The position numbers were made by a program, and so were the translations under genes. Positions 29,666-34,276 of a stretch of 64,000 nucleotides of DNA are shown here, piece by piece. The DNA lies in IMG/VR virus record IMGVR_UViG_3300027847_001705; one strand, given 5' to 3'. Positions within the stretch are counted from its first letter, which is position 1. Every line of letters begins with the position of its first letter. This DNA is from a virus. The notes beneath the pieces were generated by a model. That model made no database searches. It saw only the letters and a program-made list of their open reading frames with translations, and was not told where the DNA came from.

Positions 29666-29875
29666 TTACCAGCCCGTTATCTCTGTTCGATTATCTTCTA
29701 GAGGAATCCATTGCATTGTTTCTTCTTCGCCAGTCCACCTAGCAGATACTATTGGATAAGTTCCCCAGGCTCTTTCCACAGCAGCTTCTCCCCCTCGACA
29801 TATTTTTTTTGTTCCATCTTCAAACGTTAATTCCACTACTTTAACTTTCTCTATTATCATATTATCAGTCGACAT
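29666..29875 (-). CDS. Hypothetical protein
   Basis: 69-aa ORF. Confidence 0.45.
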   Translation of the reverse strand: MSTDNMIIEKVKVVELTFEDGTKKICRGGEAAVERAWGTYPIVSARWTGEEETMQWIPLEDNRTEITGW

Positions 29876-30191
29876 GTTGTTCTATTCCATGTTGATCTAA
29901 CAAATCATGCATTCGTTGATGTTCGTCCGCCGTGTATTTGTAAAAAAGTACTCCGGTAACAAAACTTCCGATAACAATCCCTTGGACAAATCTATAAATT
30001 GTTTTTCTATTTTTGGCTTTTGTGTCTTCTTCCATTGATTTACCACGTTTATAACCATCATAAAATTTATAAAGGCCATAAGCAACAACAAATCCTCCTA
30101 TAATCCAACTTATAGGATGGTTAACGGTGGCGACAAAACTGCCGCCAAATAGTACGGCAATAAAACCACTAATCCAGCATATAGGACACAT
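29865..30191 (-). CDS. Membrane protein with N-terminal CxxC
   Basis: MCPICW followed by hydrophobic segments. Confidence 0.55.
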   Translation of the reverse strand: MCPICWISGFIAVLFGGSFVATVNHPISWIIGGFVVAYGLYKFYDGYKRGKSMEEDTKAKNRKTIYRFVQGIVIGSFVTGVLFYKYTADEHQRMHDLLDQHGIEQHVD

Positions 30192-30201
30192 ATGTATACT
30201 C

Positions 30202-31272
30202 CTATCTTGCCTCTTTGGGTGCTGATTCTTCTTCTACAGCCAATTCTTCTATTTCCATTTCACCATATAAAAATTCTTTCCCAGCTGCAACGTCTAACTT
30301 GTCTAAAATTTCTTTAGTAAAATACTTGGTAGGATTTTTAAGCATGGTTTTTAGAAAAACCTTTTCTCCATCAGGCATTTCTAATCTGGTAGAAACTTTT
30401 TTAAAGATTCCATACTTCTCTGCTAATTCTGCTAATCCATAATATCTATTCAATCCTTCTTTAAAGGTAAGAAGAACATCTACCATTTTATGTTCTTTTG
30501 TGAGCCTAGATTTATAAGTTCTACAATGAACTATATTACCAATTACTTCAGTACCATCCTTTTCTTTCTTTTTAGATAGAAATACGATACTAGATGCGGC
30601 ATAATGTAAGCCTGTTCCTCCACCCATAATTTTTTGAGGAAATAATGTTCCTATTTGATCGTATGTGTGATTAGTAACAACAAGAGGTACTTTAGCTTTA
30701 CCACCTAATAAAGTTAAAACCCTAAATGTGCCTTTAACCATTTGTGCTCTGGTCATATCCCTGGTCTCTTTACCGTCACTAACATCTTCCATTTCTTTAG
30801 TAGTAGAAAGATTACCTAATGAATCTAAACATATCATCATTGGCGGACGAGACTTGATGGGTTCTTCTAAATGTTTTTCTAGAATTTTAGTTGCTTGTGT
30901 TCTGAATTCTTGAACCGTAGCAACAGGTAGGATAATCATTCGTTTAGAATCGATTCCTCTTGATTCTATCATATCTTTGGTTATGGCAGATTCACTTTCA
31001 AAATATATAACTCCACCAGTAGGATTATCTACGAGAAATTGTCTGACACAACCTAAAACGAAAAAAGTTTTGCCTGTTGAACTTTCTCCGGCAAATGCTG
31101 TAATTTTATTAGATGGTAATCCACCATAGATGCTACCAGACAATTGAGCATTTAAAATATACGATCCGGTATCAATAAAACTTTCTACATCGCCTGCTTC
31201 AACACCATCACTTACTACTGCGCCATATTCATTATTAGCTACTTGTAGCATTTCTCCAAAATAATCACTCAT
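30202..31272 (-). CDS. uvsX: RecA-like recombinase
   Basis: [37 protein letters not shown] motifs. Confidence 0.95.
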
Positions 31273-31304
31273 AAAACCTTTTTCAATTAATCATTATATT
31301 TTTC

Positions 31305-31338
31305 AAAAAAAGGGGGGCAATATTCGGCTCCCCCTTTT
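31305..31338 (-). terminator. Intrinsic terminator
   Basis: G-rich/C-rich stem (GGGGG...CCCCCC) followed by a T run on the minus strand. Confidence 0.8.
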
Positions 31339-31347
31339 GCATGCAAA

Positions 31348-31433
31348 GTGGCGCACACCTAAGCCCAACGCCGAAGCAGGGACAGCAGGATGGCTACGCC
31401 TCGGGGTTTAACCCAAGTCTGCCGATGCGCCAC
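31348..31433 (-). ncRNA. Candidate structured RNA, family unknown
   Basis: 8-bp closing stem GUGGCGCA/UGCGCCAC, GGCAG/CUGCU stem, inner hairpin and C(UUCG)G tetraloop; GC-rich in AT-rich context. Confidence 0.55.
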
Positions 31434-31442
31434 AATTTCTAG

Positions 31443-31771: not shown

Positions 31772-34276
31772 CTATACTAAAAAAGCTTCTAGAGAACTTG
31801 TTTTTTCAGGAGACCATCCAATGACTTTTAATATTTCATTCAAGGGTCCCCTAAAAGACTTTTCAAATTGTTTATCATAATCAATATAATCATGAAGCCC
31901 GAACTCTTCAGGCAAGCCTTCCATCATGGCTATGACACCATCTCTAATAGGATTAGGCTGTTTCAAATAAATAAATTTAATCTTTTCCCCCTCTTGAATA
32001 AGAGGATACTTATTTTGCAATTTATTTTGTTTCAGAAAATGATTATACAAGCGTGTTGCTTTTACATGAACGGGTGTTCCTTTAGCATACAATTTTGTAC
32101 CACCATTATATTTTTCAATTCCCTTAACTGATCTGGGGAATGCAATATTTTCAATAGGTTCTTTTTCGAACTGTTCTCTAAAATCTGCAATGAACTTCTG
32201 TATAGCTTCTTCATCGTGATTGATGATAATATCAAAAGACTTTTTTAATTTATCTCTACAAGATGTGGGAGTTGATGATTTGACAGATTCAATTCCCATA
32301 ACCTTGATTCGTGGGTTCGCATATCTAACTCCTTCGTTATCATGAACATTAAGAATATAATGTTTCTTTCCCGTCCAAATACCTTTATCAGCAATACACT
32401 CTCTTTTCATAAACATCTTCTGACCGTAAGCATTCATATAGCTTGCAAGTTCTGAATATCCGCTATCAATTACTCCTTGAAGTTTTTCCTCACATACTTT
32501 ATCTAAAAAATTTATTACTTTAGTTGTATCCGGATTTTCAGGAAATACTTTTTGAACTAATGCATCTAATGTAATATAGAGGGAATCAGTGTCTGATGCC
32601 AATACATAATCAACCTCTTCTGTTTCTAAAATTTTGTTGAGATAATTATTGACCACAGTTTCTGCCCAGCGAATACTGAGCTGTCCTCCCAATGTAATAG
32701 CTTCTGATATTCTCAAATCAAAAAATCTAAAATACGGATTTCCAAAAGCACCGTAAACACTATTAAGCATTAATTTCATAGCGGTTTGTTTATTACCAAA
32801 TGAATCTGCTTCCTTTTTTAATTTTTCTATCTCGATTGGATCTTTTTCTTTTTCTAATTTTTTCTTAGCCGCGATTTCCTTCTTTTTAAAGATAACTCTA
32901 TTATCATATTTTTCCTGCATTATTCTTGGTAAGAATCCTTGTTCATCTTTTTTGAACCCTTGTCCGTTAGGAGCAATGATAATATCTTTATCATAATATT
33001 TGTTTAAATCAACTTGCTTATTTAATAAAGAATCAACCCGACATGTCTCTGTAACGCCCGTTAAAATAGTATCAGGGCTAACATTGTATTGCATAATTAA
33101 ATGAGGATATAGACTATTTAAATCAAAGCTGACAACCCAATTATGTAGGCCCGCTTGTACTTCTTTTACATATGCTCCAACATATGCGGCATTTTTTATA
33201 TTATCTTTCTTGGGTGGAACTATTATATTTCTATTCATTAAATCATTCGCAAGAATAACTTCCCACATCATCACCATTCCAAATGTGTCTTGATAGTTTA
33301 CCTTTGCTTCATATGCCAAAGCAACCACCATTTCTATCAATTTTTTCTTTTCCTCTAATCGTTCTACGAGCTGCGCATCTTTAATATTATAATCGATAAA
33401 CAGCTGAAAATTTTCTTTATATAATGTATAAAGATTTCCATATTCCTCAAACGATAATTTTCTTTCTCCTAATTCAATAGAAGCAATATAATCTAACCTA
33501 TAACTTTCCGCTGGAGGAGAATTCCTTCTATAAACATCAATATAATCAATAACAGCAATGCCGATGAGATCATGAAAGATTGTTTCTCTGCCTCTAAAAT
33601 TTGTTGTTCTTTCATTAACTATTCTCCATGGAGATAATCTCTTAACATTCTTTTTATCAAATAATCTAGAAATCCTATTAACTAAATATGGGATATCAAA
33701 GCCTTGAATATTCCACCCTGTAATAATATCAGGTGCCAACTTTTCCCAAAAAGAAAGAAATTCTTGAACTAAATGATTTTCATCGGCGCAGTGAAAATAT
33801 TCAACATCTGGATTAGTATTATTATATTCACCACATCCAAATACAAAATATTTTCCTTTTGCTCCAACAGTAACTGCTTGTATTTCTTCTGAGGCAGAAA
33901 TTGGATCCGGAAAACCATGTTCTGAACCAACCTCAATATCAATACTCGCAACTATGAGTTGTGAAAAATCATAATCAATACCTTTGTCTTTGGGAAACTC
34001 TTCGTAAATATAATTATATCTCCAAGCAGTCATTCCATAAATCTGAAAATTTTCTACTCCATCATATTTTCGAATAAATTCTCTTGTTTCTTTAATTGTA
34101 CCGGGCTTAATAGGAGATAATGATTTTCCATCAATAGTTGAATATTTTGATTTTTCGTTGGAAGGAATAAAAACTGTGGGGTGATATTCAATGCGATCAT
34201 CAAAACGTTGGCCGTTTTCATAACCCCTAACTAAAACATGATCACCGATTTGGTGTACGTTTGTATAAAATTTCAT
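31772..34276 (-). CDS. 43: Family B DNA polymerase (T4 gp43)
   Basis: DIEV and YNI.D exonuclease motifs; SFDLNSLYP, KLMLNSVYG, SDTDS polymerase motifs. Confidence 0.97.
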   Translation of the reverse strand: MKFYTNVHQIGDHVLVRGYENGQRFDDRIEYHPTVFIPSNEKSKYSTIDGKSLSPIKPGTIKETREFIRKYDGVENFQIYGMTAWRYNYIYEEFPKDKGIDYDFSQLIVASIDIEVGSEHGFPDPISASEEIQAVTVGAKGKYFVFGCGEYNNTNPDVEYFHCADENHLVQEFLSFWEKLAPDIITGWNIQGFDIPYLVNRISRLFDKKNVKRLSPWRIVNERTTNFRGRETIFHDLIGIAVIDYIDVYRRNSPPAESYRLDYIASIELGERKLSFEEYGNLYTLYKENFQLFIDYNIKDAQLVERLEEKKKLIEMVVALAYEAKVNYQDTFGMVMMWEVILANDLMNRNIIVPPKKDNIKNAAYVGAYVKEVQAGLHNWVVSFDLNSLYPHLIMQYNVSPDTILTGVTETCRVDSLLNKQVDLNKYYDKDIIIAPNGQGFKKDEQGFLPRIMQEKYDNRVIFKKKEIAAKKKLEKEKDPIEIEKLKKEADSFGNKQTAMKLMLNSVYGAFGNPYFRFFDLRISEAITLGGQLSIRWAETVVNNYLNKILETEEVDYVLASDTDSLYITLDALVQKVFPENPDTTKVINFLDKVCEEKLQGVIDSGYSELASYMNAYGQKMFMKRECIADKGIWTGKKHYILNVHDNEGVRYANPRIKVMGIESVKSSTPTSCRDKLKKSFDIIINHDEEAIQKFIADFREQFEKEPIENIAFPRSVKGIEKYNGGTKLYAKGTPVHVKATRLYNHFLKQNKLQNKYPLIQEGEKIKFIYLKQPNPIRDGVIAMMEGLPEEFGLHDYIDYDKQFEKSFRGPLNEILKVIGWSPEKTSSLEAFLV

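Follow-up and report, generated by a model that had tools for sequence, protein, structure and literature searches.

An 86-nt GC-rich element on the minus strand of a phage genome, located between the gp43 and uvsX genes (positions 31,348 to 31,433), is an orphan hairpin: it is real, belongs to no known family and shows no evidence of conservation. It is probably a simple transcript-end hairpin and not a new ribozyme or RNA family. We tentatively read it as a recently acquired cis-acting hairpin of a 3' UTR, where it would serve transcript stability or processing, while a functionless insertion is nearly as likely. Positions refer to the window, the whole stretch of 64,000 nucleotides that was analyzed, which comes from a 105-kb IMG/VR virus record (G000) with an estimated completeness of 59% and a G+C content of 33.6%.

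Genomic Context

The genes around the element are all on the minus strand and follow the order gp43-type DNA polymerase (31,772 to 34,276, the upstream neighbor), a 73-aa hydrophobic ORF (P0001; 31,443 to 31,664), the element, an intrinsic terminator, the uvsX recombinase gene (30,202 to 31,272, the downstream neighbor) and a gp41-type helicase. The element starts 9 nt past the stop codon of the 73-aa ORF and sits in its 3' UTR. IMG/VR contains 228 relatives of this ORF, for which no family was found in Pfam or PHROG. The separate intrinsic terminator reported in the preliminary description is indeed present after the element, at about 31,338 to 31,305 on the minus strand (AAAAGGGGGAGC-loop-GCCCCCC-U7); it folds independently of the element and is common to relatives that lack the latter. 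The element was itself rejected as an intrinsic terminator: the 86-nt hairpin is followed only by UUU, and the true terminator lies 9 nt further on. A sigma-70-like promoter match on the same strand (31,293 to 31,320; TTGCCC-16-TATAAT, 10/12, a consensus match only) overlaps the terminator upstream of uvsX. Relatives with an empty site have TTGATT-N17-TATAAT instead, in a 24-nt stretch absent from the window's phage. Since a consensus scan gave no promoter belonging to the element and a terminator stands downstream, the element must be transcribed together with the 73-aa ORF.

The nearest cultured phages by UvsX were the OM43 myophage Melnitz (69%), Pelagibacter phage HTVC008M (63%) and cyanomyophages (63%), which indicates that the window's phage is an uncultured marine T4-like myovirus of uncertain host. 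A GC-richer run of genes lies outside the window in the same record (L180, G000:C1:91000-105437). Among its products are a glutamine synthetase-like protein, a 2OG-Fe(II) oxygenase and an AdoMet decarboxylase; photosystem genes were not seen there.

Composition and Predicted RNA Fold

The sequence, coordinates and strand of the element agreed with the preliminary description, as did its unusual GC-richness. Its G+C content is about 62% in a 34% GC genome, and the best 80-nt window within it reaches 0.64 (genome mean 0.336, sd 0.07), the peak of the whole 105-kb record. The 8-bp closing stem previously noted (GUGGCGCA/UGCGCCAC) was also found and forms a perfect terminal inverted repeat. A small peptide encoded within the element (24 codons in frame from GUG) was considered and rejected: both changes seen in a natural variant are non-synonymous, the composition is foreign and there is no Shine-Dalgarno sequence.

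The minimum free energy fold of the minus-strand RNA is a single long imperfect hairpin of 33 pairs (-40.0 kcal/mol), with a 6-nt bulge (CGGCAG), a 4-nt bulge (UCCC), two 1x1 loops and a terminal loop CAUCCU. None of 200 dinucleotide shuffles was as stable (z -2.77). When both strands of the genome were scanned, the element gave the most stable 90-nt fold, with the tRNA-Tyr gene region behind it. Most sampled pairs of the hairpin had probabilities of 0.95 to 0.99 (one at 0.63), and those of the closing stem ranged from 0.87 to 1.0. The opposite (plus) strand folded at -29.1 kcal/mol, no better than its shuffles (z -0.47).

Nine of the 33 pairs are G·U, there are no A·C oppositions, and the two 1x1 mismatches are A·G and C·C. 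If a DNA palindrome decays by transitions, either strand is expected to have about as many A·C as G·U oppositions. On a simple coin-flip view, the probability of the 9:0 asymmetry is about 0.002. Together with the strand difference in z, this asymmetry is an argument for pairing that is important, or that originated, in the RNA of the transcribed strand.

The internal architecture previously proposed, a junction containing a GGCAG/CUGCU stem, an inner CUUGGG...CCCGAG hairpin and a UUCG-capped arm, did not hold up. Scored explicitly, it reached -25.8 kcal/mol vs. -40.0 kcal/mol for the long hairpin, and its pairs had a probability below 0.01 at both 37 and 15°C. The local hairpins of that proposal, including the C(UUCG)G cap, do form in growing transcript prefixes according to fold prediction, so they could exist transiently. 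With only two near-identical variants at hand, comparative analysis does not discriminate between the long hairpin and the junction.

Comparison With Known RNA Families

At gathering score, Rfam 15 returned nothing relevant at the element in a search of the whole window. At E ≤ 10, with excerpts of 401 and 111 nt, the best score on the element was 10.6 bits, compared with gathering scores of 40 or more, so that no family matched it. The models for hammerhead, twister, pistol, hatchet and HDV-like ribozymes were among those that gave no match, along with all other Rfam 15 families, and the hammerhead core motifs CUGANGA and GAAA are both absent from the sequence. No match to manA RNA (RF01745) was obtained on the element at E ≤ 10. 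A remnant of manA RNA was rejected as well, as only 10- to 11-nt word matches were found, with no alignable similarity.

The element had been described as not fitting a tRNA cloverleaf, and both ARAGORN and the Rfam tRNA model concur. A degenerate or unusual tRNA-like gene would be compatible with the length of 86 nt, which fits a class II tRNA, and with the terminal stem of 7 to 8 bp. However, ARAGORN called no tRNA with its bacterial settings, whether default or relaxed (the calls made under very lax or mitochondrial settings were meaningless), the Rfam tRNA model was silent, no T-loop, D-arm or anticodon arm stands in the right place, and there is no CCA or discriminator context. The tRNA-like reading is effectively refuted. 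We infer that the element is neither a ribozyme nor a tRNA nor a riboswitch.

Distribution and Recent Gain of the Element

Using UvsX and the 73-aa ORF as anchors, we fetched 160 related loci from IMG/VR. The element was carried by five IMG/VR records of one lineage and one Tara contig. Loci L002 and L003 have an element identical to that of the window, while L005, L006 and the Tara contig (CERL01061182) carry a second variant with two changes, G37U and C53U (variant 2). Its presence in at least six independent assemblies, in two variants, indicates that the element is not an assembly artifact. Three pattern scans of all IMG/VR contigs (5' part, hairpin core and 3' part) recovered only the same locus, in four contigs; an 18-mer match in L086, a high-GC phage, lies within a coding region and was put down to chance. 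One 20-mer scanned against JGI/Tara metagenomes yielded one further contig, with variant 2. There was no match to the element in cultured phage records (blastn, distant mode) and no other copy in the fetched loci or in its own genome (nhmmer and blastn-short), nor did a covariance model (R1) find one in five phage records and 96 loci. The element is present once in the source record and once in a relative with a 100% complete genome of 177 kb (G001).

Sister phages (L093-L098) have ORF proteins 93-95% identical to the 73-aa protein, near-identical DNA flanks and a closely related terminator, and lack the element. Alignment with such empty-site relatives delimits a 94-nt indel on the minus strand (31,345 to 31,438), consisting of AAAUU, the element and UUU. 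The indel lies directly past the stop region and reads ...CATAACTAG|AAATT-86 nt-TTT|GCATGCAAAAGGGGG, vs. ...CATAACTAG|TTATGTAAAAGGGGG in the empty site. Its junctions (AAATT|...|TTTGC, compared with TTATGT in the empty site) leave at most an ambiguous TT, and no clean target-site duplication. Because the ORF has 228 relatives and the insert occurs in the lineage of the window only, a recent insertion (gain) in one narrow lineage appears to be the parsimonious explanation.

Search for the Origin of the Insert

All of GTDB (596 Gb) was scanned with one 20-mer of the hairpin core. The scan returned one exact match, in an Alkalinema MAG (sp. RU_4_3, G005), where the matched 20-nt core is part of a MITE-like palindromic repeat present in at least 20 copies (L172-L179), with GGGTTAAAACCC ends and an arm that reads ...CTGCGCTGCTGCCCCGCCTTGGGTTAAAACCCGAGGCTAATAGCTAAAACCAGCTAAAGCAGG.... 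The element resembles this repeat in its terminal inverted repeats, its hairpin shape, its foreign-looking composition and the identical 20-nt core, but it differs in being single copy, in having no clean target duplication and in flanks that do not align. About one exact 20-mer match is expected by chance in 596 Gb. Among 401 cyanobacterial genomes, weak matches were obtained in 6 at a per-genome E ≤ 0.01, with about 4 expected. The Alkalinema repeat was rejected as the source, since the match count is at chance level, the flanks do not align and the similarity extends over no more than about 20-28 nt. The repeat also gave a weak match to plant miRNA-precursor models, as is usual for long hairpins. 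The multiple dispersed copies that would characterize a MITE were not found for the element: there is one copy each in G000 and G001 and no other locus in IMG/VR (three patterns), JGI metagenomes or GTDB (one 20-mer each, the Alkalinema match being attributed to chance).

Constraint and Recombination at the Locus

The genomes G000 and G001 are 97-100% identical in 100-nt windows from about 31,970 to 30,400, and mostly 99-100%. This near-identical block of about 1.5 kb spans the end of gp43, the small ORF, the hairpin and most of uvsX. The body of gp43 is about 92% identical between the two genomes, with 16% divergence at third codon positions, and the stretch from 29,870 to 30,370 (the 3' end of uvsX and ~500 nt beyond it) has no similarity to G001. 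Such a block in a ~92% background, next to a dissimilar uvsX 3' end, indicates that recombination and gene replacement have probably occurred recently at the locus.

Within the shared block, the 222 nt of the 73-aa ORF are identical, and 2 of the 86 nt of the element differ. By this comparison, the element appears no more conserved than its neighbors and gives no sign of extra constraint. Both changes are from G/C to T and no compensatory change was seen. The variant 2 fold is slightly weaker (-38.1 kcal/mol), as one of the changes breaks a terminal G·U pair. A conserved structured ncRNA family was consequently rejected: there are two variants with two differing positions, neither change is compensatory, and covariance model R1 finds nothing else. 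Because no homologues with compensatory changes were found, the interpretation as an ncRNA family fails for now.

Possible Function

In the mechanism that we tentatively favor, a 94-nt single-copy insert has recently entered the hyperplastic slot between gp43 and uvsX in one lineage, and its transcript belongs to the 3' UTR of the gene for the 73-aa membrane protein. The RNA would fold into a stable imperfect hairpin of about 33 pairs directly upstream of the pre-existing terminator and would act in cis, as a second barrier against 3'-to-5' exonucleases. Alternatively, it could be a double-stranded RNase III-type processing site, cleavage of which would leave a protected 3' end; either action would determine or increase the amount of the upstream message. 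Exonuclease-blocking and RNase III-type hairpins are well known, including the REP hairpins of E. coli, the R sites of phage T7 and lambda sib. Like these, the element is a long stable imperfect sense-strand hairpin between genes and separate from the terminator. Unlike them, it is restricted to one lineage and precedes a terminator at which the transcript already ends, and it bears no sequence relation to any of them. In addition, REPs are multi-copy whereas the element is single copy. RNase III needs roughly two helical turns. A helix of at least about 20 bp, on the transcribed strand and in an untranslated region, can be expected of an RNase III-type or 3' protective hairpin, and the element has 33 predicted pairs in a near-continuous helix, on the sense strand only, a length that would suffice for this enzyme.

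Of the three options offered in the preliminary description (novel ncRNA, ribozyme or 3' stabilizing element), the last is the best fit because of the position in the 3' UTR before the shared terminator, independently of which it folds, and because of the very stable, sense-strand-specific hairpin, the most stable of the genome. The other two are left without support, with Rfam scores of at most 10.6 bits, no promoter of the element's own detected, no homologue beyond one narrow lineage in IMG/VR or in scans of JGI metagenomes and GTDB genomes with one 20-mer each, and zero compensatory changes. Sister phages in which manA RNA or another leader occupies this position also favor a cis-acting hairpin, as they suggest that structured-RNA cargo is tolerated or used in this slot. 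On the other hand, the two variants provide no comparative support and one of their changes destabilizes the fold, the element is not more constrained than the adjacent ORF, and the terminator hairpin already protects the 3' end. Moreover, 228 relatives of the ORF manage without the element, so any benefit would be dispensable. If the hairpin does alter the fate of the transcript, it would represent a natural and very recent case of a phage tuning one small gene through an inserted ready-made RNA hairpin, and the filled and empty sister genomes allow a direct comparison. At present the element is an orphan that lacks comparative support, and it opens no new class.

The nearly as likely explanation is that of a functionless recent insertion, a foreign GC-rich scrap or a hairpin-shaped by-product of mobility or recombination that landed in a hyperplastic region beside a terminator-promoter cassette and is tolerated there as part of a UTR. 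Its occurrence in one narrow lineage and absence from all other relatives of the flanking genes would be in line with this, as would the G+C content of about 62% in a 34% genome, the perfect 8-bp terminal inverted repeats and a conservation no higher than that of the neighbors. Both changes in variant 2, from G/C to T and with a weakened fold, are what is expected for decay under AT pressure. T4-like phages have hyperplastic regions bounded by terminator/promoter cassettes (PeSLs), and the shuffling of the slot among relatives recalls the PeSL-mediated indels described for these phages (PMC4122927). This explanation fits less well with a single copy per genome, including the 100% complete 177-kb relative, with the lack of any other copy in the IMG/VR pattern scans or in the scans of JGI metagenomes and GTDB with one 20-mer each, and with the absence of a clean target-site duplication. 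The asymmetries in G·U vs. A·C oppositions (9:0) and in z-scores also point to pairing at the RNA level and not to a DNA palindrome.

An independent functional RNA released from the message, be it a trans-acting sRNA derived from the 3' UTR, a decoy or anti-defense RNA, or a new self-cleaving or processing motif, is unlikely. The predicted fold is strong and specific to the sense strand, a recognized structured RNA (manA, RF01745) occupies the same slot in related phages, and local hairpins including the C(UUCG)G cap appear in growing transcript prefixes. However, no Rfam family exceeds 10.6 bits, neither the CUGANGA nor the GAAA hammerhead core is present, no promoter for such an RNA was found by consensus scan, the searches gave no homologues and hence no covariation, and the junction fold makes up less than 1% of the ensemble. 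We regard as decidedly improbable the more specific proposal of a newly captured functional RNA cargo of the slot, either a regulatory RNA derived from the 3' UTR or an anti-defense decoy, that would be under selection as RNA and has so far been met in a single young lineage; such selection is suggested by the 9:0 asymmetry of G·U to A·C. A signal acting at the DNA level, such as a cruciform, an initiation site for replication or recombination or a nuclease target, is very unlikely, even though the GC-richness of the inverted repeat, amid AT-rich intergenic sequence and beside replication and recombination genes, might bring one to mind. Indeed, 9 of the 33 pairs are G·U and become A·C mismatches on the other strand, which would make a poor symmetric cruciform; the plus-strand fold is no better than shuffles, and there are relatives entirely without the element.

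Other Cargo of the gp43-uvsX Slot

The element is one more cargo of the gp43-uvsX slot. What follows the 73-aa ORF varies by lineage and includes a plain terminator and then uvsX, manA RNA, a hairpin leader or other genes; most relatives of the ORF go straight into a terminator or another element. Three loci have manA RNA (RF01745, 55-59 bits) after the homologue of the 73-aa ORF, on the plus strand (L156:975-1181, L157:979-1184 and L168:1005-1214), and a fourth (L100:979-1184, plus strand) scored 54.4 bits, just under the gathering score. A strong promoter (TTGACA-N17-TATACT) stands ahead of the manA RNA in the slot. These matches place manA RNA in the gp43-uvsX slot of marine myoviruses that are not cyanophage-like. 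It shares with the element the position directly past the homologue of the 73-aa ORF in related phages and a GC-richness relative to the genome, but at about 190-205 nt it is multi-stemmed with a pseudoknot and has its own promoter here, whereas the element measures 86 nt. The gp43-uvsX slot of these marine T4-like phages thus emerges as a swap-point for structured RNAs, namely manA RNA, other leaders and the hairpin of the element.

The setting also resembles that of the PeSL cassettes of T4-like phages (PMC4122927, PMC2839356): the element is in a hyperplastic region between core genes and adjoins a terminator, followed by a sigma-70-type promoter in relatives, with indels and gene swaps among relatives. 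Unlike a PeSL, the element is neither terminator nor promoter; it is an extra insert 5' of the cassette and exceeds a PeSL stem-loop by far in length and G+C content.

Several empty-site loci have a GC-rich island just past uvsX (L015:1830-2010, L019/L020:3527-3700 and L023:2421-2600). These islands are unrelated to the element, as they lie inside a small ORF (MIVEKVKVVELTLEDGSKMICRGGEEAVLRAWG...) that is missing from the window's phage. In other loci (L106, L115, L144-L151, L167, about 20-110 nt past the ORF stop; L120, L121, L135, L137, L138, L154), we observed a conserved leader hairpin, which gave no Rfam match at E ≤ 1. The leader is accompanied by a terminator. Its hairpin has a GGAAGAC loop, reading G(U)UGGAAGAC, and CUYGGAAGGAGA comes next, where a small MKKLIS... 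ORF has its ribosome-binding site. Such an arrangement may represent a terminator plus a Shine-Dalgarno sequence, or an undescribed cis-regulatory motif.
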